A DNA stretch of 64,000 nt from a virus. Positions 1-54,519 of the stretch are shown here, one piece after another. Below the pieces are notes generated by a model. The model was not told where the DNA came from, made no database searches, and was given only the letters and a program-made list of their open reading frames with translations. Both the position numbers and the translations under genes were made by a program. The stretch is from IMG/VR virus record IMGVR_UViG_3300010233_001188, positions 1 to 64,000 of that record, one strand, 5' to 3'. The number at the start of each line of letters is the position of its first letter. Position 1 is the first letter of the stretch.

Positions 1-55
1 GATATACCCAGTTGCCCCCGTTACCAGTATTCTCATAATGTTTCCCCCAAAGCCT
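1..55. repeat. Exact 55-bp inverted repeat of 1862-1916 (left copy, runs to the window edge)
   Basis: Reverse complement of 1-55 is aggctttgggggaaacattatgagaatactggtaacgggggcaactgggtatatc, identical to 1862-1916. Confidence 0.97.
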
Positions 56-590
56 GAGCCATAATATGCATGAGTGATTGATGGCAATCTTCAATCACTC
101 CATAATTACAAGAATCTATATGTAGGTTTATATCAACCATCTTTCTACTGCGCCCGCCATCAAAGCCAGTCATAGCTATGACCGGGATGCCAATATTATA
201 CGCTGAATTGATAGCTTGAATAATATTCTCGGAATTGCCAGAGGATGAAATTGTGATTAGCAGATCACCTTTCCGGGCCATACTCTCAATCTGATAGGAG
301 AAGATGCGCTCAAAGGACAGATCATTGCCGATGGCCGTAATCAATTCTACGGAGTTTGATAGGCTTATCACACGAGGGCTATAGTTTGTCTTTGATCGAA
401 TGCCCTTAGAACAGTCACAAACAAGATGATTGGCTATTGCCGCTGAACCCCCATTCCCACAAGCATAGATCAGATTGTCCGATTTAATCGTATTCCTAAT
501 TAACTCAACAGCCCGTTCTAACTCCTGTTTATTGATGCCTCTTAAAGCTTTGCAAACTTGAGTCGTATACTCATCTATAAACGAGCGCAT
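33..590 (-). CDS. gmhA: Sedoheptulose-7-phosphate isomerase (SIS domain)
   Basis: Motifs CGNGGSAA, TAIGND, ISSSGNSENI, MTGFDGG and IEDCHQ typical of GmhA. Confidence 0.92.
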   Translation of the reverse strand: MRSFIDEYTTQVCKALRGINKQELERAVELIRNTIKSDNLIYACGNGGSAAIANHLVCDCSKGIRSKTNYSPRVISLSNSVELITAIGNDLSFERIFSYQIESMARKGDLLITISSSGNSENIIQAINSAYNIGIPVIAMTGFDGGRSRKMVDINLHIDSCNYGVIEDCHQSLMHIMAQALGETL

Positions 591-704
591 TCAATATCCG
601 CGTCTATTTTTTTCATAGAAACCTGTTAAAATGCATTTGAATAAATACGCATAAGCCATATCCTGCGAAAAATGGAACAATCATGTGTGTAAATATCCAC
701 CAAA

Positions 705-1520
705 TCATTTCAACTCACCCATAGCTTGTTCATAAGTTTCTTTACTTAGGGGACGATAGTGGTACGCAGCACTTCCTTCTGCCGCTGAATAGCCTTTTCC
801 CTTGACCGTGTGAGCTACAATGACGCTGGGTTTGGTTTGCCCTTGGGCTGAAGCAATGGCGGACATCAGTTCTTCCACATTATGCCCATCAACCGAGCTA
901 AGGATGCAGTCCATCCCCCGAACCATGTTGATCCAATTATCGGTTATGACATCATTGACAGGGCCAATACTGCTGATCTTATTGCTATCGATAATAACCA
1001 CAAGGTTCCCTAGATTGTGATGACGGGCTAGAGTAAGGGCCTCGTAGGATACCCCCTCTTGCATCTCGCCATCGCCGCATAGAACCATAACCAGCGGATC
1101 GCGCTCATATGGGTCAAAAAGCTTGTAGGCGGCTTTTTGTGCTTTCAGGCCAAAAGCTATACCTACAGCAATTGGCAAGCCGTGGCCTAACGCTGCGCCT
1201 GTAGAGGCTTCCACAAATGGTACTCGATGATTGGTATGCCCACCAAGATAAGTACCGTCCGTATGGTACGTGTCGATTTGCTTTTTAGAGAGTAGCCCGA
1301 AATGATACATTGTGGCGTAGGTTGCTGCCGCCGCATGACCTTTAGAAATGATAACCCTATCCCTCTGAGCGTCCCCGGCTATGATTTTATTAAGGTCGCT
1401 AGAGGAGTACATCGCAATCAAACACTCAACAGCACTGAGGCTCGGGCCTAAATGCGCGGCCCCGCCTCTATAAAGCATCTCAATAATTGAGCGTCTAATC
1501 GCTTTAGGATCAGGCAGCAT
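705..1520 (-). CDS. Transketolase-like protein, N-terminal ThDP-binding subunit
   Basis: HLGPSLS, SKGHAA, GHGLPIAVG, GDGEMQEG...N and HTVKGKG motifs; start placed at ATG 1520 (ORF track start 1547). Confidence 0.9.
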   Translation of the reverse strand: MLPDPKAIRRSIIEMLYRGGAAHLGPSLSAVECLIAMYSSSDLNKIIAGDAQRDRVIISKGHAAAATYATMYHFGLLSKKQIDTYHTDGTYLGGHTNHRVPFVEASTGAALGHGLPIAVGIAFGLKAQKAAYKLFDPYERDPLVMVLCGDGEMQEGVSYEALTLARHHNLGNLVVIIDSNKISSIGPVNDVITDNWINMVRGMDCILSSVDGHNVEELMSAIASAQGQTKPSVIVAHTVKGKGYSAAEGSAAYHYRPLSKETYEQAMGELK

Positions 1521-1860
1521 GTTCTTCTTTCTGGAAATACTCAACAAGCTCTGCGATACCTTCTTTGATGGATATACGGGGCGTCCAATAATCTAGCATC
1601 TCAAGAGCTTTTGAGATGGAGGGGTTCCTAATGCTTATAGGGGAATCACCTTTAACGATTGTGGGGGTTTTGCCAGAAGCAATCACACTCTGAGCAATGA
1701 TGCCCCCCATAGAAATTAACTCTTGCCCCGCTATGTTAAATATACCGCTATGTCCGATAGATGCCATAATCCCGGCGCATAAATCATTGATGTGGATGAA
1801 CCGCCTAGCGGATTGCAGATTGCCTACTTTGACTTCCGATTTAGTCAGGACATCATGCAC
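1510..1860 (-). pseudogene. C-terminal fragment of an NAD-dependent epimerase/dehydratase, cut at the inverted-repeat junction
   Basis: RRFIHINDL, GIFNIAG and WTPRISIKEGI match the extended-SDR C-terminus; no Rossmann motif; in-frame stop just beyond the 1861/1862 junction. Confidence 0.75.
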
Positions 1861-1861
1861 A

Positions 1862-1916
1862 AGGCTTTGGGGGAAACATTATGAGAATACTGGTAACGGG
1901 GGCAACTGGGTATATC
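1862..1916. repeat. Exact 55-bp inverted repeat of 1-55 (right copy: gmhA 3' end plus epimerase start)
   Basis: Direct sequence comparison. Confidence 0.97.
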
Positions 1917-2912
1917 GGCTCTGTCCTCATGCCCCGCTTACACTGTGTGGATGGACAAGTGTGGGATGTTGTAGGCCTCGATACGGGCTACTTCAGCAAA
2001 TGCAAATTGTGGGAGCCTATAGTTAACTATCCAATTATTCGCAAAGATATCCGCGATGTGATGGTTGAGGATTTACAAGATTTTGACGCTGTTGTACATC
2101 TCGCAGCATTATCCAATGACCCTTTAGGAAATCTTGATCATCGCTGGACGCATGATATCAATTTCGATGGAACCATTCATCTTGCTCAGTGTGCTCGCGC
2201 CGCTGGTATAAAACGGTTTCTCTTCTTTTCGTCTTGCATCATGTATGGGGTTTCAGATGGAGGCGATGTCAATGAAGATTCACCGCTCAACCCACAAACG
2301 GATTATGCCCGCTCAAAAGTTGATGCAGAAAATATGCTTCGCACTATGGCGGATGACGACTTCCACCCCACCTTTATCCGTAACGGTACAATCTATGGAA
2401 GTGCAGCAGCGCAACGTCTTGATACGGTTGTAAACCAATTCGTCGCTGAAGCTATGACACATGGAACTGTTACAGTTCTAAGTGATGGAACGCCTTGGCG
2501 GCCTATCGTGCATGTATGGGATGTGTCTCGCACTGTGCCGGTTTATCTTCAGGCCCCGATTGAAACTATCCATAATCAAGCATTTAACAATGGTGCTGAT
2601 TGGATGAATATGCGCGTGCGAGAAATAGCTGAAGCTGTGGTTAAGGCTATTCCGGGGGCAGTTCTAAAAATTGCATCCGAATCTGGGGCCGATCAGCGTA
2701 CATATAAAGCCAGCTTTGCTAAATTTGCGCGGACATTTCCACAATTCAAGTTTGACTATAGCCTAGATCGCGGAATTGCTGAATTAATGGATATGTTTCA
2801 GCGAACAAGCATTATAAATGAAGACCAATCGAAGTTTGTCCGTTTGTCGCAGCTTAAGCATCTTATTGCTGATAACGAGCTAGATAGTACATTGCGGTGG
2901 ACATATGTTTGA
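1881..2912 (+). CDS. NAD-dependent sugar epimerase/dehydratase (extended SDR)
   Basis: VTGATGYIG Rossmann motif, HLAALSND, YARSK catalytic motif. Confidence 0.92.
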   Translation: MRILVTGATGYIGSVLMPRLHCVDGQVWDVVGLDTGYFSKCKLWEPIVNYPIIRKDIRDVMVEDLQDFDAVVHLAALSNDPLGNLDHRWTHDINFDGTIHLAQCARAAGIKRFLFFSSCIMYGVSDGGDVNEDSPLNPQTDYARSKVDAENMLRTMADDDFHPTFIRNGTIYGSAAAQRLDTVVNQFVAEAMTHGTVTVLSDGTPWRPIVHVWDVSRTVPVYLQAPIETIHNQAFNNGADWMNMRVREIAEAVVKAIPGAVLKIASESGADQRTYKASFAKFARTFPQFKFDYSLDRGIAELMDMFQRTSIINEDQSKFVRLSQLKHLIADNELDSTLRWTYV

Positions 2913-3882
2913 TATTGTTACCGTGCGCACCCCATTACGTATTTCCTTCCTTGGCGGTGGCAGTGATATACCATCATTTTATCACAATAATGGTGGTGGA
3001 GCGGTCCTCTCCACAACTATAGATAAATATATCTACGTCACCGTCAAAAAGCACTCGCCCCTCTTCAAGGAAAGATATAGGCTTAACTACTATAATAGTG
3101 AGCATGTGGATTCTCTTAACGACATCCAAAACGACATCGTTCGCGCCTGCCTTCAACTTATTCCAATTCCCCCCCCAATTTACATTCATACAGTTGGTGA
3201 TCTTCCGACCCGTAGTGGCCTTGGCTCTTCCTCCTCTTTTGCTGTTGGCCTTCTACAAGCCCTCCATGTACTCAAAGGCCACACGCCAACGCCAGAGGAG
3301 TTAGCTCAGGAGGCTTGCAAAGTTGAGCTAGAAATCCTCAACAAACCTATAGGCAAACAGGACCAGTACGCCGCCGCCTTTGGCGGCTTTAATCTAATCC
3401 AATTCCACTCCGACAACCGAGTTAGCACAACTGTACTCGATATGCCCTCTGTTCTTTTCAAGTCAAGTCTATTGTTTTGGACTGGATTGGAGCGTGATGC
3501 GGCCATAATACTCACAGATCAAGTTAAAAATGCTGGAAATAATACCGCCTTTTTAAGCAAAATGCGTGGAGATGCCACCGAATTTGGCACCTCCTTTTGC
3601 AATACCAGCATTAAACCTTTCGCTTTATATCTACAAGAAAACTGGGCTATGAAACGGCAACTCTCTTCCCTTATCAGTACTCCAAAAATTGATGAATGGT
3701 ATAACGCCGCCATGACAGCCGGTGCTCTTGGTGGTAAACTTCTTGGGGCCGGTGGCGGCGGCTTCCTTTACTTTCTAGCGCTACCTGACCGTCACTGTGC
3801 TATTCGGGCTGCCCTCCGGCCTCTATCTGAAGTCAAAGTCGGTTATGAACCGCACGGATCTAAGGTGATTTATAGCGCATGA
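2905..3882 (+). CDS. hddA: GHMP-family sugar kinase, heptose-7-phosphate kinase-like
   Basis: RTPLRISFLGGGSD, PTRSGLGSSS, GKQDQYAAAFGG, GGKLLGAGGGGF. Confidence 0.88.
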   Translation: MFDIVTVRTPLRISFLGGGSDIPSFYHNNGGGAVLSTTIDKYIYVTVKKHSPLFKERYRLNYYNSEHVDSLNDIQNDIVRACLQLIPIPPPIYIHTVGDLPTRSGLGSSSSFAVGLLQALHVLKGHTPTPEELAQEACKVELEILNKPIGKQDQYAAAFGGFNLIQFHSDNRVSTTVLDMPSVLFKSSLLFWTGLERDAAIILTDQVKNAGNNTAFLSKMRGDATEFGTSFCNTSIKPFALYLQENWAMKRQLSSLISTPKIDEWYNAAMTAGALGGKLLGAGGGGFLYFLALPDRHCAIRAALRPLSEVKVGYEPHGSKVIYSA

Positions 3883-4430
3883 AATTCTGCCCCCTCAAGA
3901 TATCCGGTGCTTATACCATCTACATGGAACCAATTACGGATGAACGCGGTTTCTTCGCCAGAGCCTATTGCTCTCAAGAACAAATTGATCATGGGTTAAC
4001 ACCTTACTTCGTTCAAGCTAATAACTCCGTTAGTCGTCAAACAGGCACACTACGGGGCTTCCACTATCAATTAGGCGCTCATGCTGAAGATAAACTTATT
4101 CGCTGTATAGCCGGTAGCATTATTGATGTTATTATTGATTTGCGGCAGCATTCCCCAACTTATCTCAAACACGATTTTGCCTTTCTCAACGCCACGAGGC
4201 GGGATGCTGTCTATATCCCACGAGGTTGTGCTAATGCCATCCTTACCCGTGAACCTAACACAGAACTATTCTATCTTTCGTCTAATTATTACACCCAGTC
4301 GGCTGAACGAGGCATTCGTTGGAACGATCCGGCCTTTGCCATCGATTGGCCGCATGAACCTAAGATTGTATCAGAAAAAGATTCCACTTGGCCTAACTTT
4401 AACAAGGCTTATCACTTAGGTGAAATATGA
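3879..4430 (+). CDS. rmlC: NDP-4-keto-sugar 3,5-epimerase (RmlC cupin family)
   Basis: DERGFF, GTLRGFHYQ, DVIIDLR.SPTY, ERGIRWNDP, SEKD. Confidence 0.92.
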   Translation: MKFCPLKISGAYTIYMEPITDERGFFARAYCSQEQIDHGLTPYFVQANNSVSRQTGTLRGFHYQLGAHAEDKLIRCIAGSIIDVIIDLRQHSPTYLKHDFAFLNATRRDAVYIPRGCANAILTREPNTELFYLSSNYYTQSAERGIRWNDPAFAIDWPHEPKIVSEKDSTWPNFNKAYHLGEI

Positions 4431-5242
4431 GAGCGCTAGTCACTGGAGCTACCGGCTTCATAGGAACACATCTGTGTAAGCGCTTATTAGCAGATGGACA
4501 TGAAGTTACGGCACTATCCCACACCGAACAAGATATACTTGGTTTTGTGGGGAATACTAAACCGGATATAGTTTTTCACCTTGCTACGTACTTCGTCTAT
4601 AATCACCGACCAGATGATATAGAGTCGCTTGTTACAGGAAATATTCTGTTCCCACTCAAGCTTATAGACGCCATGGCTCGATGCGGGGTTAAGCATCTCA
4701 TAAATACAGGTTCAATATGGCAGACTTTGGGGGGAATTAGAAACAACCCGGTGTGTCTTCAATCGGCTACTAAAGATGCCGTTGAAACGCTTATTCGTTT
4801 CTATGCCAACTCTGGGAACCTTGGTGTAATAACGCTACACCTTACAGATACCTACGGACCTAACGACAAGCGCCGTAAGCTATTCACTGTCCTCCACGAA
4901 GCCGCCGATAGCGGGGAAACGCTTAGGATGTCAGAGGGCCAGCAGCAGCTTTCCTTAGTTCATATTGACGACGTTATAGCAGCCTATATTCGAGCCGCTG
5001 AGGAAATAAAAGACTACCGGGCCGCGCACTCTTGCTATGAAGTAAAGGCGAAACCCAGTGAATGGAAATCGTTGCGGGAAATTGTGGAATTATACTCTAC
5101 GATATCTGGGAAGAAGATAAATGTAGAATGGGGGGCAAAGCCGTATAGGGAGCGTGAGCCTATGTTTGTTGAAGGAGTATATTCTAATATAGACGGCTGG
5201 AATCCAAAGATAACGTTAGAAGAGGGATTGGCGACGCTGTGA
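4427..5242 (+). CDS. NAD(P)-dependent sugar epimerase/reductase (extended SDR), atypical active site
   Basis: VTGATGFIG, VFHLA, DTYGP, VHIDDV; the YxxxK position reads QSATK. Confidence 0.85.
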   Translation: MRALVTGATGFIGTHLCKRLLADGHEVTALSHTEQDILGFVGNTKPDIVFHLATYFVYNHRPDDIESLVTGNILFPLKLIDAMARCGVKHLINTGSIWQTLGGIRNNPVCLQSATKDAVETLIRFYANSGNLGVITLHLTDTYGPNDKRRKLFTVLHEAADSGETLRMSEGQQQLSLVHIDDVIAAYIRAAEEIKDYRAAHSCYEVKAKPSEWKSLREIVELYSTISGKKINVEWGAKPYREREPMFVEGVYSNIDGWNPKITLEEGLATL

Positions 5243-5937
5243 CCGTTACCCAAGCAGTTATTCTAGCGGGAGGACGCGGGACAAGGCTGGGGGCGCTAAC
5301 TGATAACTGCCCCAAGCCGATGATTCAATTTCATGGTAAGCCGTTTCTAGCCTATCTCATTGAATATCTGCGAAAACAAGGGTTCACAAAGATATTACTA
5401 CTTTTAGGATATCTGCCTGATATCATTCATGATTATTTTGGTGATGGAACTGGCTTTGGGGTACAGATCAAATATTCTATAAGCCATCTCCATGACGATA
5501 CAGGGCGTAGGCTTTACCTCGCCGGGAATAAGATTAATCCATCATTTCTGTTGACCTATAGCGATAATTACTGTGCGATGAATTTGGATTCCGTAAAAGC
5601 CCAATTCGAACAGGACTATATCCCGTGCATGACGGTTCATACCGGCGCTCATAGAAATAACATAGAAATTGATAGGGATGGCTATGTCATTGACTATGAT
5701 CCTAGCAGAGAAAAGGCCCTATCAAGTGGACTTGATATTGGATTCACATTTCTTAACCGCGATATCATCGATAAGGATTTACGGCACGGTAACGCTAATT
5801 TTGAGAGAATTGTCTACCCCAAGCTTATCAATAGTCGAATGCTTAAAGCTAATATTGTAACTGAACCGTACTATAGCATAGGTTCACCAGAGCGTCTTGT
5901 TAGAACATCACAATTTCTTGCACATATAGGTGGCTAG
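5239..5937 (+). CDS. hddC: Sugar-1-phosphate nucleotidyltransferase (HddC-like)
   Basis: AVILAGGRGTRL...PKPM signature; clustered with gmhA and hddA. Confidence 0.8.
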   Translation: MTVTQAVILAGGRGTRLGALTDNCPKPMIQFHGKPFLAYLIEYLRKQGFTKILLLLGYLPDIIHDYFGDGTGFGVQIKYSISHLHDDTGRRLYLAGNKINPSFLLTYSDNYCAMNLDSVKAQFEQDYIPCMTVHTGAHRNNIEIDRDGYVIDYDPSREKALSSGLDIGFTFLNRDIIDKDLRHGNANFERIVYPKLINSRMLKANIVTEPYYSIGSPERLVRTSQFLAHIGG

Positions 5938-6821
5938 TGCGATCAGCTATACTCAAACAATTACACAAACATTTTGCGGATGATCCATCACTGTTCTTTG
6001 TGACAGCCGATATGGGTTTAGGAAACGTCGAGGTATTCAAAGATTCTTACCCAGATCGCTTCCTTAATGCGGGCATAGCGGAACAGAATGCGGTGGGTAT
6101 ATGTGCTGGATTATGGAATGTGGGCTATCGCCCAATCCTTTATTCCGTGGGGAATTTCTTAGTCCATCGACCCTTTGAGCAGCTTAGAAACGATATAGCG
6201 GCCCAAGAAATCCCTATTATTCTCATTGGCACGACAGCGGGTTATGACAACGCCTCTCTTGGCCCAACGCATCACTTGATCGATGAGTGGGGTTGTATAA
6301 AGAGCCTACCCGGCTTTGAAGTGTATACACCATGGTCGGTTGAATATGCCGAGCAGCTTATAGACAAGGTGCTCAATCGGCATAGGCCCACCTATATCCG
6401 TATTCCTAAAGGCTCCCCATCAATGAGTCTAGTTAAGGACGCACCTATCAGCTATCTTCATAAAGCTGATGGACCATTATTGATTACCTATGGTCCGTTA
6501 GCGGAAGAATGCAGAAAAGTCCACGAGGCTCATCCTGAAGTTTCTGTGCTGGTGATGCACAAGCATTGGCCTATTACGAGTGATTATGTCTTAGGGATTC
6601 TGAACAACTATAAGCGCGGAATCGTTGTCGAGGATCATTTCAAGCATACCGGGCTATATGGCTCCCTCTGCCAATATGTGATGGATAACGGCTTGCGTAT
6701 AAAGCTAGAGAGTGCTGCTCCTCCGCATCACTACGAGCTGATGTCGGCTAAGAACCCAGAATGGTATTGGAAGAAATTTAAGCTAGACAAGGCTGGTCTT
6801 GAAAGACGCCTTGGTTTCTAA
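5937..6821 (+). CDS. Transketolase-like protein, C-terminal (pyrimidine-binding) subunit
   Basis: TADMG, YPDRFLNAGIAEQN, RPFEQLRND, LGPTHH, VVEDH. Confidence 0.9.
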   Translation: MRSAILKQLHKHFADDPSLFFVTADMGLGNVEVFKDSYPDRFLNAGIAEQNAVGICAGLWNVGYRPILYSVGNFLVHRPFEQLRNDIAAQEIPIILIGTTAGYDNASLGPTHHLIDEWGCIKSLPGFEVYTPWSVEYAEQLIDKVLNRHRPTYIRIPKGSPSMSLVKDAPISYLHKADGPLLITYGPLAEECRKVHEAHPEVSVLVMHKHWPITSDYVLGILNNYKRGIVVEDHFKHTGLYGSLCQYVMDNGLRIKLESAAPPHHYELMSAKNPEWYWKKFKLDKAGLERRLGF

Positions 6822-7248
6822 GATGAGGGATCTAGCAAAAAATCAACCACTCGCACTAGACGTTAAAGCTGCCGTAGAGGCATGGATAATGCATATTATA
6901 AATAGTAGGACTACAATTAGCTATAATGAAGAGGGACGTGAGTTTGTAGAAACCCAAGCCAATAATATAGTCTACTCCTTTATAGAGCGCTATAAATCTT
7001 TAAACGAAGAACCTCCGACGCTGTGGAGTACTTTTCGCCCATCTTCAAACTCTCAACTCGTTGTAATGCCGGAAACTGAGATTGAATTGGAAGAAACTAT
7101 CGCTTTCTTGTCCGAGGGTGTCAACAATATACCGCGTCATCTGAATTGCATAACTGATGAAATCCACATTCTGAAATCTCGTTTCTTTGCCATGCGTCCT
7201 AAGCAGTCCGTAGTCGAGTATATATTAGAGCAGAGGGATTGCGCTTAG
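6799..7248 (+). CDS. Hypothetical protein with C-terminal EYILEQRD tag
   Basis: ORF coupled to the previous gene; ends SVVEYILEQRDCA. Confidence 0.7.
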   Translation: MKDALVSKMRDLAKNQPLALDVKAAVEAWIMHIINSRTTISYNEEGREFVETQANNIVYSFIERYKSLNEEPPTLWSTFRPSSNSQLVVMPETEIELEETIAFLSEGVNNIPRHLNCITDEIHILKSRFFAMRPKQSVVEYILEQRDCA

Positions 7249-7330
7249 GGCCTACCGTAATGAACACCATCACTGCTGCTTTAGCCGCGATAGTCATGGT
7301 TATAATTATCATCTTTTCTATGAGGATTAA

Positions 7331-7531
7331 ATGAACGCTGTAGATAGACTATGGGAGATGGAACGCTTGCGGGATTTACGCCAAACAGAAGAGGTTACTA
7401 TCATCCCAACAGCATTACTCGTATGGGCCATAGATGAGATTAGCCATTTGAGGTCAATAAGAACTATAAACGAGGAACCCTATGAATGTGAATGCGGCTG
7501 TCGTATTTGCGAAAAGTGTGAATGCAAATGA
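7331..7531 (+). CDS. Small hypothetical protein with Cys-rich C-terminus
   Basis: GAGGA RBS upstream; ends CECGCRICEKCECK. Confidence 0.6.
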   Translation: MNAVDRLWEMERLRDLRQTEEVTIIPTALLVWAIDEISHLRSIRTINEEPYECECGCRICEKCECK

Positions 7532-8508
7532 CCGGACCTATTCTGTCCATCATCATGCCCTCAAGAAATACCAATAGCAGGGCTTATGCGAATGTCGCAT
7601 CCTTGGCGGACTACGAGAATACTTATATTGAAGCCGTAGTCAGAGATAATTCCGGCATACGCTCGGAATCCGATTGGCCGTCTCATTGCCGTCACTACAT
7701 CCATTCAGTAGCTCCGTGCACACACATGGAAAACCTTATGGAATGCCTCAAGCTCGCCAAGGGTGAATTTGTAACCATGGCTTCCGATGATGACATTATT
7801 TTCCCACGGGGCGTAGAAGCTACGTTTGAGGCGGTGCGCTCTATCACTGACAACAAGCTCTGGGTCGGTTCACACGGCACGTACAGCCTTGAGCAGTCTA
7901 ATGGCTCGCATGGGCTTCACTATCAACACTTAGGCAGCCCACGGGCTTTAGAACGCGTCCAGGGCTATTCTGAGTTCCCTGGACCTAATCTACTGTTCTA
8001 TTCGACCATTAGACGGTCGGTTATGCTGGAATCTATGGAATGGGCGTTTGTCAAGCACCCGCTTAAGACTTCCTTTAATGACCAGCTTTGTGTGCTTTGG
8101 TGGCTACTGAAGGGGCAGTTTAAAGATGTAGGCCGGTTTATCTTTTCCTATGACAATGGTAACTGGGAAAGCATCAACCAAGCGGCTAAGCGCGATGCTG
8201 ATATTGCCGCTATTAGCCATACTCCCAAAGCCGTTACACGGATGCATTGGCTGGCTTGTGGACTTGAGGGGGCTTTACTCGCCAAACGCTTCGGAGAAAT
8301 CGACGCTGGTAAGGTCTGGTTCGATTTGCAGTATAAACGATTCAAGGCCGACATGCGCGATAGCGAGGTTCCAGAGGCAGAAGCATTGGCTAAGAAATGG
8401 CGTGAAGCTAAACGAATTGTGCCTAAGGACATCTTAAGCGACCTGTGCACGCTCATTGCCATGACGGATAAACCCAAAGCAGATGCGTATAAGGAGTTCT
8501 GGGCATGA
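7522..8508 (+). CDS. Glycosyltransferase, GT-A fold (GT2-like)
   Basis: LSIIMPSRN, VVRDNS and AKGEFVTMASDDD (DxD) pattern of family-2 GTs. Confidence 0.8.
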   Translation: MQMTGPILSIIMPSRNTNSRAYANVASLADYENTYIEAVVRDNSGIRSESDWPSHCRHYIHSVAPCTHMENLMECLKLAKGEFVTMASDDDIIFPRGVEATFEAVRSITDNKLWVGSHGTYSLEQSNGSHGLHYQHLGSPRALERVQGYSEFPGPNLLFYSTIRRSVMLESMEWAFVKHPLKTSFNDQLCVLWWLLKGQFKDVGRFIFSYDNGNWESINQAAKRDADIAAISHTPKAVTRMHWLACGLEGALLAKRFGEIDAGKVWFDLQYKRFKADMRDSEVPEAEALAKKWREAKRIVPKDILSDLCTLIAMTDKPKADAYKEFWA

Positions 8509-23856: not shown

Positions 23857-25323
23857 TTAAGTGATCGTCACAAAGATATTATTGGCTTGAACTTGCGGAA
23901 TCTGATCGGCATGAACCCAAACAAATGTCTGATTAGCAATCACGCCAAACATTGTCTCGTTGCCGATTGATTGATTGCCGCCACTAAGGCTGTAATTACC
24001 AATGCTACCATTACCAGAAAGATTGGCGTTGATGATTGTTCCAGGAACAACCAGCCCGTTAGCATCAATAAGCACTTGACTTACCGGAACAGCAATGTTG
24101 CCGGACACGTTGCCGATGGCATTAAGAACCATACCAGAAACATTTCCGGTAAAGGTTGACGCCGCTGTATTCTGCGTCCCAATATAGATGCTACGGATTT
24201 GCGCCCATGACCCGAGCGCGCTAATCGGACCATAGAACGGCCCGGCTAGAACCTGAGAACCAATACGAGGCATTGGCGCTGTATAATTTCCACTCACATT
24301 ACCGGAGGTGGAATTGCCATTAAAAATACCAATGATGGTTTGCTGAATAAGCGTAGCCGCATTCGACGGAACAGCCGTGCTATTAGCCACATTGATTGCA
24401 AATACAAACTGAAGCGGGGCCGGTATTGTATACGTGATGTTATATGGGATTGGAGCAGCATAAAGCGGATTACTGTCATACACGGTAACGGTTGTATTAC
24501 CCTGCATGGGCGCGCCTGGAGATTTCTTATCCAGGATTGCAGTAGCTACTGCCGAGCTATTCCCGCCATACACAGACACAAAAATGGAATTGGCGGCAAT
24601 CGTGACATTACCAGCTGTCACATTTCCTGAAGTGTTATTGCTATAGCCCCAATAGTCTAAAACCCCTGGGACAGCGGCAACGCATCCAATTATTGCACCA
24701 ATAGGCCCAAAGGAATTTCCGGCAACCGAAGCCGCTCTCCGCGCTTCAAACGCCGAACGATTCTCAACATTTGCTCCCTCAACCCCTGAAACAAACGAGC
24801 AGCTATCCCATCCAGGAATAGATGTGTAGATGGATAAATTGCCCTCAGGAACAGCAATTGGGCCGTAATTAGTGCAGGCAAAAGTAGCAGTGACGTTCCC
24901 GCCAACTGGGATGGTCACATTACCGGCATTAGCGTATGCGTTGCCCGAGGCATCCTGGACTAATGCGCCCGCTGGAATAACAACACCGGGCAGTCCAAAA
25001 TTGTACGTTGTCAGCGTAGTCGCGGTCGCCGGAATACGTGTCATGAAATAGATACGACCTATCGCATCCTGGAACCGCCCAACATTATACGCCGGGTCCA
25101 TTTGCTGTGATAGGTTTACAAATTCATCGTTAGTATTCCCAATGATGGCTGCCTCACTAGAGGCAAGCTGCCCTTGAGGGGTGCTAAGATTAGCACTTAA
25201 ATTCCCACCAAAAGCTGTATTTATATCCTGTTGAACGCCCGCAAGAATAGCGCTTTCAAGAGGACTTTGGAATCCTGTGGGCGTGAAAACCAACGGCGGC
25301 ACGGATGTTGATATATTAGCCAT
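23857..25323 (-). CDS. Baseplate J-like protein
   Basis: LSTPQGQLASS, DP....GRFQDAIGRIYF; about 27 sequons. Confidence 0.88.
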   Translation of the reverse strand: MANISTSVPPLVFTPTGFQSPLESAILAGVQQDINTAFGGNLSANLSTPQGQLASSEAAIIGNTNDEFVNLSQQMDPAYNVGRFQDAIGRIYFMTRIPATATTLTTYNFGLPGVVIPAGALVQDASGNAYANAGNVTIPVGGNVTATFACTNYGPIAVPEGNLSIYTSIPGWDSCSFVSGVEGANVENRSAFEARRAASVAGNSFGPIGAIIGCVAAVPGVLDYWGYSNNTSGNVTAGNVTIAANSIFVSVYGGNSSAVATAILDKKSPGAPMQGNTTVTVYDSNPLYAAPIPYNITYTIPAPLQFVFAINVANSTAVPSNAATLIQQTIIGIFNGNSTSGNVSGNYTAPMPRIGSQVLAGPFYGPISALGSWAQIRSIYIGTQNTAASTFTGNVSGMVLNAIGNVSGNIAVPVSQVLIDANGLVVPGTIINANLSGNGSIGNYSLSGGNQSIGNETMFGVIANQTFVWVHADQIPQVQANNIFVTIT

Positions 25324-30985: not shown

Positions 30986-32755
30986 TTATTGGACAACGAT
31001 GCTGGCAAGCGACAATTTTTGGACAGATTCCCCATCCACATACCAGAGCGTCATAGGCGGGCTTTGGCGTGCGACTCGCGTTGCCGAAGATGCGGGCTGA
31101 ATTTGCAGATACCAGCCTTGAGTCTGAACCGTGTTGGCAATATTAGCCCCGGCTGCATTATTGATTTCCGCAATCTGTAAAGCAGAAAGTGCAACACCGG
31201 CTCTAATCACACCGGCATTCAAAGCCGCCGCTAATGGGCCAAGGCACGCCGATTCAATCAAGCTGTAACCAGCCGCATTATACGGGATGGAATTTACATT
31301 GGTCAGAAGATTGACCAGCGCCACCTGAAGCTGATTATTGAGCCATATCTGGTTGAGGTACGTATCAACCCAATCGAACGGGCCTGAGATGGAGCCGGGG
31401 TACATAAACGTCCAGCTATTATTGCCGGTCGCGTATGCGCCCATATAGTTATAACCATTAGCCTGAAGATTAGATGCAACCGTGGCGCTCGTCACACCCG
31501 GCGCTAATCCGCTCTGAGTCTTGAACGCTAAAGTAGCGCGGCCATTAGTTTGTGTGAAATCAATCGAAGCGGCATACCCGCAGACAAACGCACCCCCATA
31601 GTACGGGCCACCAGTGCTGGGTTCATAGATAGGGCAAGTACCGGAATAATCATCCGTCTGGGTAACGATATAACCAAAACTGCCAGTAGCAGCCGTGCTT
31701 TCGGTTGGGAGGATGTCTGTATCAACCGCCACATACATATAACGATTGCTCTGAGTACTCGTCCAAGCCGCAAATGCAAGCTTGCCGGTAGGCGGCTCAG
31801 CACCGCTATCGGGATCGAACAACAGTTTGAACGTCGCCCAATTCTGGGTAAGCGTAGTAATCCCAGTCATAAAGGATGCGGTAGTATTCGCAGTCTGGGC
31901 AGAAGCACCTTGGCTCAAGACAGCGCCCGTAGCAGCCGTCAAATCAAGACTTGTTGCCAAATTGCCGGATGCATAAGCAACAGTAGATACATTTCCATAA
32001 ATGCCGGAAGTGATGACAAATGCACTTGACGTGGAATCATACGTAACTGTGACATTGGCTGGCTGAACTTGCATCGATTCAGCGCCGGTAGCCGAGATAT
32101 TAGCACTTAAGTTATAAGTGCCATTTCCACCAGTGCCATTACCGAGACCGGTAATCCAAGTCCCGGTAGTAACGTTGCCGCCAATGACCTGTTGCCCAAC
32201 CGCAATATTACCAGAGGACCAGCCTGTGACCGTAAGAACCGTGCCAGTGATGTTGCCGGTAAAGGAAGAGATGTTGCCACCGTTACCCGCATTCAATGCA
32301 TTCTGAATCGTAGTCGCGGCAGCCGAAAAGCTAGACGCAGCGGAAAGGCTGATGCTGCCATTACCACGGCTATACCCATCTACTATAATAGTAATATTGC
32401 CAGCACCAAGCGCATTAAGCTGTGCAAGCGTTAGGGCGCTAAGATTGCCGCCACGCTCATAAGCAGAAACATTCCCGGTATTGTATTGTGCAAACAGCAT
32501 AGCGCCCGGCAAAGCTGTAGCACCAGTAAAACCGCCAAAGTAAATCTGAGCTTGGGCATATTCCGCAGACGCACCACCAAAATACTGCGCTACCGAAGTA
32601 GCCGTGGGAAACGACAAGACTTGATTATACGGGACGCGGGTATTGGTAGTGATAAACAAACCATTGAGTTCAAGATTGCTCCCGCCTGCGCTTAAAACGC
32701 CAGGAACAACCTGAACTATGGTCGATGCCGGGATCGTATTGACAATCGATGCCAT
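30986..32755 (-). CDS. Tail sheath protein (DUF3383-like)
   Basis: IPAS.IV.V.PGV, QNWATF, NQIWLN, SIPYN..G, WY.DG.SVQ. Confidence 0.9.
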   Translation of the reverse strand: MASIVNTIPASTIVQVVPGVLSAGGSNLELNGLFITTNTRVPYNQVLSFPTATSVAQYFGGASAEYAQAQIYFGGFTGATALPGAMLFAQYNTGNVSAYERGGNLSALTLAQLNALGAGNITIIVDGYSRGNGSISLSAASSFSAAATTIQNALNAGNGGNISSFTGNITGTVLTVTGWSSGNIAVGQQVIGGNVTTGTWITGLGNGTGGNGTYNLSANISATGAESMQVQPANVTVTYDSTSSAFVITSGIYGNVSTVAYASGNLATSLDLTAATGAVLSQGASAQTANTTASFMTGITTLTQNWATFKLLFDPDSGAEPPTGKLAFAAWTSTQSNRYMYVAVDTDILPTESTAATGSFGYIVTQTDDYSGTCPIYEPSTGGPYYGGAFVCGYAASIDFTQTNGRATLAFKTQSGLAPGVTSATVASNLQANGYNYMGAYATGNNSWTFMYPGSISGPFDWVDTYLNQIWLNNQLQVALVNLLTNVNSIPYNAAGYSLIESACLGPLAAALNAGVIRAGVALSALQIAEINNAAGANIANTVQTQGWYLQIQPASSATRVARQSPPMTLWYVDGESVQKLSLASIVVQ

Positions 32756-54133: not shown

Positions 54134-54519
54134 ATCCCATCCCTCTGCTCTAAGATGTACTCAGCCATGGAATCCTTTACCAGAATAGGTGATGAGGGCC
54201 ACTCGCCTACGATTCGAGGAACACACTGCCTAACAAGCCTATGGCATTCATTCAGATCCTTGGTGTAGATATTTAATTTTATGAGGTCCGGATCATATAC
54301 AGATGACAGCAGTGACACACACCTCTCCTCATAGTTAAACAGCATCACTTCAAACTTATCTAAGGCGCGGATCGAAACTGATACATGCCGTACACTGATT
54401 ACTTTCCACCTTAAATGCTGTATATCCGCTAGGCTTATTACTCCCTTTTCCACCGTGACCCATACGAGCGGTGCCAATTGGAATATATCATCCTGGTTAA
54501 ATCTCGAATTAGGATTCAT
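54130..54519 (-). CDS. Hypothetical protein with EYILEQRD tag
   Basis: Ends SMAEYILEQRDGI; ATGA coupling. Confidence 0.75.
   Translation of the reverse strand: MNPNSRFNQDDIFQLAPLVWVTVEKGVISLADIQHLRWKVISVRHVSVSIRALDKFEVMLFNYEERCVSLLSSVYDPDLIKLNIYTKDLNECHRLVRQCVPRIVGEWPSSPILVKDSMAEYILEQRDGI
54136..54168. repeat. 33-bp exact direct repeat (other copy at 55422-55454) encoding MAEYILEQRDG
   Basis: cccatccctctgctctaagatgtactcagccat at both sites. Confidence 0.95.

Follow-up and report, generated by a model that had tools for sequence, protein, structure and literature searches.

A putative heptose-type nucleotide-sugar cassette with an atypical split transketolase in an uncultured lake phage

Introduction

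What would a phage make with a set of genes for activating and remodelling a heptose, and where would it put the product? The question is raised by the first 8,508 nucleotides of a 64,000-nt stretch of viral DNA (the window; positions 1 to 64,000 of IMG/VR record IMGVR_UViG_3300010233_001188). The full record of 90,599 nt (90.6 kb) comes from an uncultured, myovirus-like lake phage. Inspection of the DNA letters had suggested that the phage carries a heptose-type pathway to a nucleotide sugar, and both the gene families and the 4-keto tailoring set agree with this. A heptose-type pathway with 4-keto tailoring carried by the phage itself is probably real, and the cluster is predicted from its gene content to make a nucleotide-activated modified heptose.

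Heptose genes in phages are already known. The cultured Caulobacter phage Cr30 and Synechococcus phage SynMITS9220M01 carry an annotated phosphoheptose isomerase and D,D-heptose 7-phosphate kinase (GenBank), which adjoin a glycosyltransferase and SDRs much as in the present phage. GmhA is 46% and the kinase 37% identical between Cr30 and this phage. The heptose regions of Cr30 and SynMITS9220M01 yielded no homologues of either transketolase subunit, of the RmlC-like protein or of the GT-A transferase.

The Cluster and Its Phage Setting

All of the genes named in the original prediction are present in the ORF list where it had placed them, and Pfam and NCBIfam profiles confirm the names. The features are as follows.

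1–55, no strand: inverted-overlap copy, exact reverse complement of 1862–1916
33–590, minus: GmhA-like sedoheptulose-7-P isomerase, 185 aa (SIS_2, 89 bits)
705–1520 (705–1547 in the ORF list), minus: transketolase N-subunit, 271 aa (Transketolase_N, 127 bits)
1510–1860, minus: SDR0, C-terminal SDR piece, 116 aa (GDP_Man_Dehyd positions 209–271 only, 21 bits, below cut-off)
1862–1916, no strand: inverted-overlap partner, containing the ribosome-binding site and first 12 codons of SDR1
1881–2912, plus: SDR1, candidate C4-dehydrogenase, 343 aa (best chains 6vo6/6vo8, 83 bits)
2905–3882, plus: HddA-like GHMP kinase, 325 aa (HddA model, 142 bits vs cut-off 600)
3879–4430, plus: RmlC-like cupin 3,5-epimerase, 183 aa (TIGR01221, 148.7 bits vs cut-off 155.75)
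4427–5242, plus: SDR2, short SDR, 271 aa (QSATK at the catalytic site)
5239–5937, plus: HddC-like sugar-1-phosphate nucleotidyltransferase, 232 aa (HddC model, 92.5 bits vs 300)
5937–6821, plus: transketolase C-subunit, 294 aa (pyrimidine-binding and C-terminal domains)
6799–7248, plus: ORF of unknown family, 149 aa, overlapping the 3' end of the transketolase C-subunit gene
7331–7531, plus: Cys-rich ORF of unknown family, 66 aa, overlapping the transferase start
7522–8508, plus: soluble GT-A (GT2-like) glycosyltransferase, 328 aa (GT2-like profile, 19 bits vs 23.3)

None of the heptose enzymes of the cluster reached its NCBIfam equivalog cut-off.

The rest of the record is that of a phage. 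PHROGs families are matched by eight of the ten large ORFs scanned (tail fibre, baseplate wedge, tape measure, sheath, major head, Nudix, portal and terminase), and the replication module includes DnaB, a clamp, PolA and RecA, among others. No integrase was found in the record, which appears lytic; both of its ends are possibly incomplete. An origin of the cluster in flanking host chromosome, which would have undone the prediction, was rejected because the 149-aa ORF overlapping the transketolase C-subunit gene carries at its C-terminus a tag common to this phage's proteins, and because GC3 is similar in the cluster and in the rest of the record (0.44 vs 0.47).

The cassette also occurs outside phages. 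All nine of its families are found together in one bacterial metagenome-assembled genome (MAG), L112, and by this recurrence the cassette is judged not to be a phage invention and to have been taken from bacteria. The closest bacterial cassette, L088, has seven families, six of them at 45–58% identity and the SDR upstream of the N-subunit gene at 28%. L090 and L092 have most of the families, and most recur in other bacterial MAGs and in one archaeal MAG.

Gene Order at the Contig End

The genes had been described as mostly translationally coupled, and the ORF coordinates bear this out. Seven successive plus-strand gene pairs overlap by 1 to 23 nt, and the SDR0 piece and the transketolase N-subunit gene overlap by 11 nt. 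The truncation of one SDR, also part of that description, fared less well. It and the divergent layout of 1–1861 sit on an inverted overlap of exactly 55 nt that begins at the contig's first base, with base 56 unpaired with base 1861. Assemblers commonly use a k-mer of 55 nt, and the overlap shows that the assembly graph connected the end of the contig with 1862–1916. SDR0, whose relatives are about 300 aa long, is broken off precisely at the 1861/1862 junction; in L090 and L094 a full-length homologue stands ahead of the N-subunit gene. Given the inverted overlap at the contig end, the orientation of 1–1861 and the SDR truncation are probably assembly effects. Flipping the segment makes the GmhA stop and the SDR1 start overlap (ATGA) and brings all twelve genes into a single operon of overlapping genes that run the same way, with SDR0 truncated by nothing but the end of the contig.

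That segment 56–1861 is truly inverted in the phage, leaving SDR0 as a real pseudogene from a rearrangement, seems rather unlikely. The deposited contig does have this order, L088 too has GmhA and SDR1 diverging, and 1658–1859 is matched exactly by a 202-nt contig of a different lake run, which ends 2 nt before the junction. The repeat length and its start at base 1 speak against a true inversion, as does the gap between the SDR piece and the start of SDR1, which at 20 nt is too short for a promoter. No invertase was found in the record, the remaining cassette genes are intact, and the flipped order agrees with L112, where GmhA is the gene immediately upstream of the SDR1 homologue. Junction-bridging reads or contigs were found for neither junction.

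Heptose Activation and Tailoring

Among solved structures, the front-end enzymes are closest to phosphoheptose isomerases, heptose phosphate kinases and Yersinia HddC. GmhA scores 121 bits against a cut-off of 209 (TIGR00441), with 5i01 as its best solved chain (104 bits), and keeps the Ser/Thr-rich phosphate loop and both His. It has Asp and Glu at what we take to be Glu65 and Gln172 in E. coli numbering, presumably metal or catalytic positions, and both changes are conservative. The best chains for the kinase (3k85, 4usk/4ut4 and 4n3o) are all heptose phosphate kinases. GmhB, already noted as missing from the window, does not occur elsewhere in the 90,599-nt record either. The L112 nucleotidyltransferase carries a fused HAD (GmhB) domain, whereas the phage HddC-like enzyme has none.

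Among the tailoring enzymes, SDR1 has YxxxK, and its best chains, 6vo6/6vo8, are presumably Cj1427. Its alignment shows no Asp-Glu pair at the dehydratase position, a pair typical of dehydratases. The RmlC-like protein scores 126 bits to true dTDP RmlC vs 49–62 bits to the Campylobacter GDP-heptose epimerases, which counts against the pathway proposed below. In SDR2, Gln replaces the catalytic Tyr (QSATK), and the counterpart in L112 likewise lacks YxxxK. As assembled, the cluster has no intact C4 or side-chain reductase, since SDR2 lacks this Tyr and SDR0 is incomplete.

The natural comparison is with the Campylobacter jejuni capsule, as described in PMC10680097, where GmhA, HddA, GmhB and HddC make GDP-heptose and tailoring proceeds by C4 oxidation (Cj1427), C3/C5 epimerisation (Cj1430) and C4 reduction (Cj1428). 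The phage shares with it an isomerase, a GHMP kinase, a nucleotidyltransferase, an SDR nearest to 6vo6, an RmlC-like cupin and further SDRs, and would share activation via a 4-keto intermediate. Unlike Campylobacter, the phage lacks GmhB, its epimerase is nearer to dTDP RmlC, and one of its SDRs is without the catalytic Tyr. Its cassette also includes a split transketolase; PMC10680097 does not use the word transketolase at all.

The Atypical Split Transketolase

For both subunits the best solved match (134 and 70 bits) is the split transketolase of Carboxydothermus hydrogenoformans (6yak/6yaj), which has the same two-gene architecture. The phage N-subunit keeps the GDG...N ThDP motif and the active-site histidines, invariant in 22 N-subunits, and has GHG where the solved enzyme has GQG. 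The C-subunit keeps the cofactor Glu, both Arg and the last His. However, where the C. hydrogenoformans enzyme has the canonical His...Glu-Asp-Gly...His-Gln, the phage has Thr and Leu at the His and Asp, which are acceptor residues. His and Asp are present in 14 canonical pairs (aligned pairs from loci of at least 6 kb in the same scan).

Gene neighbourhoods follow this division. In loci of at least 6 kb, homologues of the phage sugar-nucleotide genes accompany 14 of 27 atypical pairs vs 1 of 14 canonical pairs (Fisher p = 0.006). In the C-subunit tree the phage falls in a 10-leaf clade (support 1.0), and five of the nine other leaves have GmhA or the kinase in the locus. Two further loci, L007 and L029, carry the pair between RfbF, RfbG, an SDR and RfbH; RfbG and RfbH are above NCBIfam cut-offs in both and RfbF in L007 only. 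The subunit genes are adjacent wherever both were detected among 160 retrieved loci, and in the phage they lie 4.4 kb apart, a point against the proposed pathway. From its active-site residues and neighbours, the split transketolase is predicted not to be a housekeeping enzyme. Whether the pair is a two-carbon brancher of a keto sugar we judge to be an even call.

Precedents exist as proposals. Split-gene transketolases have been proposed to move a hydroxyacetyl unit onto a keto sugar in miharamycin and amipurimycin, and 13 further putative split transketolases were listed from Streptomyces; in section 2.3 of the source, sugar branching by any split transketolase is a proposal only (PMC12247030). 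The likeness to the phage lies in a two-gene transketolase within a sugar-tailoring cluster, beside a keto-forming oxidoreductase. Compared by description, the streptomycete enzymes belong to antibiotic clusters, whereas the phage-type pair occurs in glycan loci from many phyla as well as in a phage. In the CDP-yersiniose pathway, the position that the pair takes in L007 and L029 is held by YerE (PMC12247030). Relatives of the pair plus an SDR thus occupy the place of YerE and YerF among RfbF, RfbG and RfbH, and the proposed chemistry is alike, with a ThDP-bound two-carbon unit joined to an NDP-4-keto sugar and then reduced. As described there, YerE is a pyruvate-using ThDP enzyme of the decarboxylase type; with a transketolase-type enzyme, as in the phage, the unit would be glycolaldehyde rather than acetaldehyde, and the acceptor would be a heptose, unlike in the YerE system.

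The same pair might instead supply sedoheptulose-7-P to GmhA, in which case the product would be a GDP-heptose like those of Campylobacter capsules, epimerised but unbranched. This is a lesser prospect, and we consider it fairly improbable. It would fit the position of the N-subunit gene 114 nt from gmhA, the canonical-type pairs that adjoin gmhA in L068 and L070, and a best solved relative that is a working split transketolase. A clade that travels with GmhA and the kinase can equally be read as a dedicated ketose-phosphate supplier, and together with the retained cofactor residues and both phosphate-binding Arg this is evidence against branching. Supply sits poorly with the loss of the His and Asp of all 14 canonical pairs, and with related atypical pairs in CDP-hexose clusters that have no need for a ketose phosphate. 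L070, moreover, has a canonical-like pair adjoining GmhA plus an atypical pair adjoining the kinase, epimerase and nucleotidyltransferase. In many loci, too, the N-subunit gene is coupled to an SDR, for which a supply enzyme would have no use. The two roles originally offered for the ThDP enzyme were branching and sugar-phosphate supply; branching explains the pair better, in view of the Thr/Leu changes, the clade and the CDP-hexose context.

A further option, which we regard as very unlikely, is that the pair builds a longer ketose phosphate, e.g., octulose-8-P from hexose-6-P and two carbons, for activation by the GmhA-, HddA- and HddC-like enzymes. The lincosamide octose pathway uses comparable activation and is transaldolase-based. 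Changed acceptor residues would suit a different aldose phosphate, and the divergence of GmhA, its two conservative changes and the sub-cut-off scores of all front-end enzymes would be in keeping with it. Nothing points to it directly, however; CDP-hexose clusters without isomerase or kinase contain the same atypical family, and the kinase and nucleotidyltransferase have heptose enzymes as best solved relatives.

The Glycosyltransferase and Its Acceptor

The GT-A enzyme is the sole glycosyltransferase found in the record. It has a DDD motif invariant in 45 sequences and a helical C-terminal domain, and its AlphaFold model (pLDDT 96) has TarP, RmlT and TarS as top folds (Foldseek E about 1e-8), at 13–16% identity and TM-scores of 0.4–0.5. 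These three are soluble GT-A enzymes that glycosylate wall teichoic acid; a DxD motif is common to them and the phage transferase, and the C-terminal domain differs.

The sugar had been proposed to serve as donor for virion glycans. A single soluble GT-A enzyme, an excess of a sequence motif in tail proteins and the lack of hydroxymethylation and export genes in the record lend weight to this, the role itself being deduced. The motif [GA]-N-x-[ST] occurs 117 times vs 23 expected in the ORFs at 13–41 kb and 13 times vs 11.4 expected elsewhere, i.e., at five times expectation in the tail proteins and in excess only there. Glycosylation need not be the cause of such an excess, which repeated fibre or beta-helix modules could also produce. 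Tail proteins as the acceptor is a tentative assignment, a little short of an even chance. Evidence against it comes from the transferase's fold relatives, which decorate host wall polymers.

The sugar could accordingly be placed on a host surface polymer during infection, changing a receptor or blocking superinfection, like TarP on wall teichoic acid. The structural matches and the derivation of the cassette from bacterial glycan loci would suit this, yet it appears unlikely for a seemingly lytic phage without an identified integrase. GtrA, Wzx and Wzy (O-antigen export or conversion) were not found in the record, the fold likeness is that of a generic GT-A core, and the motif excess is restricted to tail proteins.

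Attachment to phage DNA is the least probable option, and we would be surprised by it. There is a precedent in mono- and di-heptosyl 5-hydroxymethylcytosine obtained from one metagenomic phage gene cluster, in which the heptosyltransferase is described as having a GT-B fold (bioRxiv 10.1101/2023.12.21.572611). The present record yielded no GT-B transferase, no thymidylate-synthase-like or hydroxymethylase gene and no TET/JBP. A search of the record for gmhB, more glycosyltransferases, Wzx/Wzy/GtrA and base hydroxymethylases, which the original prediction had left to the rest of the genome, thus returned the one GT-A enzyme and nothing else.

Proposed Pathway

Going by family membership, GmhA would isomerise sedoheptulose-7-P and the HddA-like kinase would phosphorylate C1. 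As the phage lacks GmhB, a host phosphatase would have to remove the 7-phosphate, after which the HddC-like enzyme would form an NDP-heptose, probably GDP-heptose. Following the Campylobacter scheme, SDR1 would oxidise C4 to give a 4-keto sugar and the RmlC-like cupin would epimerise C3 and/or C5. The active-site changes and gene context suggest that the split transketolase may then take a two-carbon glycolaldehyde unit from a ketose or hydroxypyruvate and join it to the keto sugar, giving a hydroxyacetyl-branched nine-carbon sugar. SDR0, coupled to the N-subunit gene, would reduce the branched sugar, and the soluble GT-A enzyme would transfer it to its acceptor, most likely the phage's own tail proteins.

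The whole chain, from a bacterially derived cassette through a modified, branched NDP-heptose to tail proteins, is put forward provisionally, at slightly less than even confidence. If it is true, this phage would sugar-coat its own tail with a branched heptose-derived sugar.

The cluster within a freshwater phage genome

The original prediction of a sugar nucleotide cluster at 33-8508 holds for its whole gene list: GmhA, a kinase, an RmlC-like epimerase, an HddC-like nucleotidyltransferase, three SDR genes, both subunits of a split transketolase, and a transferase are all present, each at the position and in the family that it gave (ORFs, Pfam, and NCBIfam). The genes and modules discussed here are as follows.

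705-1520 (-): transketolase N-subunit
1510-1860 (-): SDR0, an SDR piece
1881-2912 (+): SDR1
4427-5242 (+): SDR2
5937-6821 (+): transketolase C-subunit
ORFs within 13.5-50.6 kb (-): tail fibre, baseplate wedge, tape measure, sheath, major head protein, portal, and large terminase (PHROGs)
23857-25323: baseplate protein
30986-32755: sheath
42189-43661: Nudix hydrolase domain in a 490-aa head-module protein

Taken together, the evidence indicates a freshwater myovirus of lytic type. PHROGs families are matched by 8 of the 10 large ORFs scanned, and outside the window the genome encodes a DnaB-like helicase, an SNF2 helicase, a sliding clamp, a clamp loader, a gp32-like protein, RecA, and an RNA ligase. 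No integrase or resolvase family finds a match in the record. Matching contigs of 151-202 nt, with zero differences, come from lake and freshwater metagenomes (4 sequencing runs), and 6-7% of sampled words are present in 5 runs from 3 studies, a comparison in which uncovered parts are uninformative. The record (90,599 nt) is classed as linear and, despite a CheckV completeness of 100%, is scaffolded and open at both ends.

The part of the record beyond the window (L084; add 64,000 for genome positions) also holds a 1282-aa family-A DNA polymerase whose N terminus is a uracil-DNA-glycosylase-like domain and whose polymerase domain is interrupted by an intein (L084:13675-17523, genome 77675-81523). 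An AAA/MoxR-like ATPase is followed there by a DUF2201 metallopeptidase/VWA protein (L084:3813-6163, genome 67813-70163), a pair known from some ternary systems. A few consecutive N lie at genome ~90190-90205, close to the record's right end, and an ORF runs off that end.

The plus-strand genes of the cluster are tightly packed, with seven successive gene pairs overlapping by 1-23 nt. A 149-aa ORF at 6799-7248 overlaps the end of the C-subunit gene, and its own C terminus is a twelve-residue phage tag (...EYILEQRD...) that a strict pattern finds in four copies in the genome, the others lying near 54162 and 55448 on the minus strand and at genome 73866 on the plus strand. The tag links the cluster to the protein tagging seen elsewhere in this phage. 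Because it is shared with other phage proteins and sits on an ORF that overlaps the C-subunit gene, the cluster is phage DNA, at least from 5.9 kb onward. On the same two features, contamination with host DNA and a chimeric join, at or past 6.8 kb, are rejected; there, the original prediction's concern that the cluster might belong to a host chromosome or a chimera is not borne out. With a GC3 of 0.44, the cluster lies inside the scatter of the rest (0.47 +/- 0.06).

The cassette itself is a recent addition to the phage, judging from viral loci that carry the neighboring 352-aa gene at up to 64% identity: homologues of the sugar genes are found in the fetched flanks of 0 of the 21. One of these loci reaches 5.4 kb past the shared SprT-like gene and is still without sugar genes. 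On the same count, the cassette was rejected as a fixed feature of the phage group.

Megablast against 50,697 phage records finds no DNA relative, and IMG/VR scans for close relatives with the N-subunit, the transferase alignment, and the query P0122 find nothing; the IMG/VR kinase scan returns one 5.8-kb fragment with a kinase and GmhA. Cluster look-ups yield no names either. By tblastn the N-subunit matches 36 phage records, all at <60% identity. The 15 listed among the 36, at 31-35% identity, are unannotated fragments and one Salmonella contig filed among the phages, and the set is not taken as phage transketolases.

Orientation of the left end

The sequence of 1862-1916 recurs, without a mismatch and in inverted orientation, as positions 1-55, and the match extends no further. 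A 55-nt repeat that opens a contig at its very first base has the appearance of an overlap in a de Bruijn graph, for which k = 55 is a standard setting. Such an overlap implies that the 1,806-nt piece at 56-1861 joins one and the same side of 1862 with both of its ends. When the piece is flipped, gmhA runs into 1862-1884, its stop codon overlaps the SDR1 start codon as ATGA, and all twelve genes become codirectional with the SDR0 piece as the first, incomplete gene of the contig. In the deposited form, the cut SDR0 and the SDR1 start codon are only 20 nt apart.

The flipped order is supported by gene order in relatives. In an actinobacterial metagenome-assembled genome (MAG; locus L112), the gene immediately upstream of the SDR1 homologue, on the same strand, is gmhA, and in an alphaproteobacterial single-cell genome (L090) and an Acidimicrobiaceae locus (L094), a full-length SDR0 homologue directly precedes the N-subunit gene. 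The SDR0 homologue of L112 has 302 aa and an intact Y-x-x-x-K. The layout of the left end and the truncation of SDR0 are therefore probably assembly effects. An SDR piece is present as originally predicted, comprising the last 116 aa; the 55-nt overlap makes it likely that its truncation came about in assembly.

A true rearrangement of 56-1861 in the phage is a good deal less likely. It draws on the closest bacterial cassette, in a Rhodospirillaceae MAG (L088), where gmhA and SDR1 are divergent, and on one 202-nt contig that ends at 1859; the junctions at 55/56 and 1861/1862 are bridged by no read or contig from the examined runs. Programmed inversion by a phage invertase was rejected, as no resolvase or integrase family has a match. 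Where gene truncations or inversions at the end of a contig fall on an inverted overlap of k-mer size, they should not be given a biological interpretation.

Heptose core and tailoring enzymes

For GmhA, the best 13 of 15 matched solved chains are all phosphoheptose isomerases. The phosphate loop and both His residues are kept, with two conservative changes (Glu to Asp and Gln to Glu) at residues that we take to have catalytic or metal-binding roles, and the NCBIfam score of 121 bits is under the equivalog cutoff of 209. GmhA thus shows the SIS fold with the expected catalytic and metal-binding residues, two of them conservatively changed. The kinase, a candidate GHMP kinase of the heptose-7-phosphate type, has HddA as its top NCBIfam model, yet at 142 bits against a cutoff of 600; all four of its top solved chains belong to heptose phosphate kinases (3k85, the sugar kinase 4usk/4ut4, and 4n3o). 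The nucleotidyltransferase likewise has HddC as its top model, yet at 92.5 bits against a cutoff of 300, and its best solved chains are those of Yersinia HddC (6jq8/5xhw). It is a candidate heptose-1-phosphate guanylyltransferase, although sequence does not give nucleotide specificity. GmhB, a HAD phosphatase predicted to be missing from the window, is missing from the whole record as well, with TIGR00213 and PF13242 giving no match at E <=1. In L112, a HAD domain is fused to the nucleotidyltransferase.

SDR1, a candidate C4-dehydrogenase as opposed to a 4,6-dehydratase, finds its best chains in 6vo6/6vo8, presumably Cj1427, the GDP-heptose C4-dehydrogenase. It has YxxxK, and its alignment shows no Asp-Glu pair after Ser, a pair that we take to be the dehydratase motif. 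The phage set fits the Campylobacter GDP-heptose scheme, with differences in the epimerase and SDR2. In the part of the published work consulted, Cj1430 epimerizes C3 and C5, and Cj1428 reduces C4 (PMC10680097). The phage epimerase scores 126 bits to true dTDP RmlC versus 49-62 bits to the Campylobacter epimerases. SDR2 has Gln where the catalytic Tyr is expected, and because the matching gene of L112 (4891-5775) also lacks Y-x-x-x-K, this state is not decay. With SDR2 lacking Tyr and SDR0 reduced to its C-terminal piece, an intact C4-reductase was not found in the phage record.

An atypical split transketolase

Both transketolase subunits have as their closest solved match the split transketolase of Carboxydothermus hydrogenoformans. 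For the N-subunit, the collection's own gene call, with the ATG at 1520 as the start and a length of 271 aa, is probably the right one. Its ThDP GDG...N motif and histidines are invariant in a 22-sequence alignment, and the cofactor Glu is conserved in a 3-sequence C-subunit alignment. The canonical stretch T-H-x-G...G-E-D-G-x-S-H-Q, found also in 14 pairs from the same metagenome scan, is T-T-A-G...A-S-L-G-P-T-H-H in the phage C-subunit, with Thr100 for His and Leu108 for Asp; His and Asp occupy both positions in 14 of the 14 canonical pairs compared. We take these positions to be E. coli His461, which contacts the substrate phosphate, and Asp469, which contacts the acceptor hydroxyl. The phage C-subunit thus lacks the His and Asp of the canonical transketolase acceptor site. 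The loss of His and Asp is common to most pairs retrieved with the N-subunit profile, and such pairs are called atypical here.

Gene context separates the two classes. With C-subunit ORFs outside 250-400 aa and loci of <6 kb dropped, a homologue of a phage sugar-nucleotide gene occurs with 14 of 27 atypical pairs versus 1 of 14 canonical pairs (Fisher p = 0.006); because the test detects only homologues of the phage's own genes, both classes are undercounted. The sole canonical pair with such a homologue is in L070 (1-14034, a metagenome contig), which holds an atypical pair too and represents a richer version of the cassette. There, a canonical-like pair lies beside gmhA, and the atypical pair lies beside a heptose kinase, an RmlC-like gene, a split aminotransferase, and a nucleotidyltransferase; between the two groups are a HAD phosphatase, a methyltransferase, and a B12-radical-SAM gene. 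The subunit genes are 4.4 kb apart in the phage and adjacent wherever both were detected in 160 fetched loci. As to a suggested link with bradyrhizose, a Bradyrhizobium locus (L102) showed only the two transketolase subunits, and the part of a Bradyrhizobium paper that was consulted never mentions transketolase (PMC4743980).

A C-subunit scan of species-representative genomes showed that the full gene set exists elsewhere. L112 holds 9 of 9 families together with a sugar C-methyltransferase, the HddC-HAD fusion, and an O-methyltransferase. L088 has seven families, six at 45-58% identity and the SDR upstream of the N-subunit gene at 28%, and most families are found in L090 and in a Nitrosopumilaceae MAG (L092). 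The sugar C-methyltransferase of L112 (Methyltransf_13/14; L112:6283-7551) lies between the SDR1 and RmlC homologues, and the phage is without it. In L094 (800-4400), matches of up to 60% identity to the phage C-subunit are split over several frames, which suggests frameshift errors in that assembly.

A C-subunit tree (n=122) places the phage protein with nine others in a clade (10 leaves; support of 1.0) that has the motif G-T-[ST]-[TA]-G-[FYW]-D-N. Of these nine, five come from loci that contain gmhA or the kinase, and a sixth comes from a locus with an SDR1 homologue; for the other three, flanking sequence is short on at least one side.

Transfer of a hydroxyacetyl unit to a keto sugar has been attributed, as a proposal, to split-gene transketolases of the miharamycin and amipurimycin pathways, and a further thirteen candidates are all from Streptomycetes; such transfer has been demonstrated for no split-gene member, and none has been characterized (PMC12247030). 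The phage shares with this type a split pair in a sugar-tailoring cluster with a putative keto-sugar-forming enzyme. A literature search for split transketolases in glycan or heptose clusters or in phages found nothing beyond that review. A different sugar setting is seen in L007 and L029, where the atypical pair and an upstream SDR lie among glucose-1-P cytidylyltransferase, CDP-glucose 4,6-dehydratase, and RfbH, the latter two exceeding their NCBIfam cutoffs in both loci. This is the setting of YerE, which, in the part of the review consulted, adds activated acetaldehyde to CDP-3,6-dideoxy-4-keto-glucose (PMC12247030).

Residues and gene context favor, at about even odds, the reading that the pair adds a glycolaldehyde unit to an NDP-4-keto-heptose made by SDR1, the product of which SDR0 would then reduce. 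The main competing explanation, a dedicated supply of sedoheptulose-7-P, is distinctly less probable; the N-subunit gene near gmhA, the Arg residues retained in the pair, and the heptose-specific C-subunit clade all speak for it. Synthesis of a longer ketose phosphate is highly improbable and is suggested by analogy with the lincosamide octose pathway.

Transferase and acceptor

The record has one glycosyltransferase, with a single GT2-like match and no GT-B match; the search for additional transferases that the original prediction proposed yields just this GT-A enzyme and no second. It is taken here in a long 328-aa form over the 260-aa call of the collection: alignments with >100 relatives begin near residue 8, and the shorter call leaves out the N-terminal strand and D-N-S motif. 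The family has ~159 representatives at 50% clustering. A DDD (89-91) is invariant in 45 sequences, and PF00535 matches 33 of 45 relatives, with the phage protein itself at 19 bits versus a cutoff of 23.3. The structural model (pLDDT 96) resembles the soluble GT-A enzymes TarP, RmlT, TarS, SpsA, and WrtF, as well as numerous GT-A proteins from viruses, among them one from mycobacteriophage Che8. The protein is thus modeled as a GT-A fold with a DxD motif.

Candidate acceptor sites are concentrated in the tail module. In a crude set of 130 ORFs, those at 13-41 kb contain 117 copies of the motif [GA]-N-x(not P)-[ST] versus 23 expected from shuffles, and the others contain 13 versus 11.4. The excess is about fivefold in the baseplate, sheath, and fiber proteins (13551-34738, minus-strand tail genes), as in the baseplate protein at 23857-25323 with 22 motifs versus 1.8 expected. 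The major head protein (38452-39540) has zero [GA]-N-x-[ST] motifs.

Families that would serve other acceptors were sought across the record. Thymidylate-synthase-like PF00303, TET/JBP PF12851, and GT-B PF00534 have no match, leaving the suggested alternative of DNA hypermodification without a base hydroxymethylase; GtrA PF04138, Wzx PF01943, and Wzy PF04932 are also without a match, so the export and polymerization genes that the original prediction proposed to look for do not appear. In the part of the preprint consulted, heptose on 5-hydroxymethylcytosine is made from a metagenomic phage cluster by a GT-B enzyme (bioRxiv 10.1101/2023.12.21.572611), whereas this record has no GT-B match, and DNA as the acceptor is so improbable that we give it little weight. 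The single GT-A enzyme, the motif excess in the tail, and the absence of DNA-modification and GtrA/Wzx/Wzy families make virion tail proteins the most likely acceptor, a preference held tentatively and somewhat short of even. A host polymer comes next and is unlikely.

Novelty and implications

Phosphoheptose isomerase and heptose kinase are already found together in GenBank phages (Caulobacter phage Cr30 and Synechococcus phage SynMITS9220M01), so a phage heptose core is known in kind. As far as the searches reach, what is new is the atypical transketolase within a phage cassette, its conservation across domains, and its pairing with a lone transferase in a genome whose tail proteins are rich in the motif. 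The cassette recurs in uncultured Alphaproteobacteria, Actinobacteria, and Acidobacteria and in an ammonia-oxidizing archaeon. The phage version is compact and intron-free and comprises nine families, making it a convenient gene set to express. Should the atypical pair branch a keto sugar, a reaction proposed to date only for two antibiotics would gain its first worked example.

Because the cassette adjoins the single transferase in a genome with motif-loaded tail proteins, the donor, the enzyme, and candidate acceptors are all defined, and virion glycosylation could be tested without culturing the phage. The most far-reaching possibility is quite unlikely: that a transketolase-type carboligase branches GDP-heptose to a nine-carbon sugar and the GT-A enzyme places it on asparagines of the tail [GA]-N-x-[ST] motifs. 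If true, it would amount to a self-contained viral system of protein N-glycosylation, with a sugar unknown in any glycan and a carboligase reaction shown for no enzyme.
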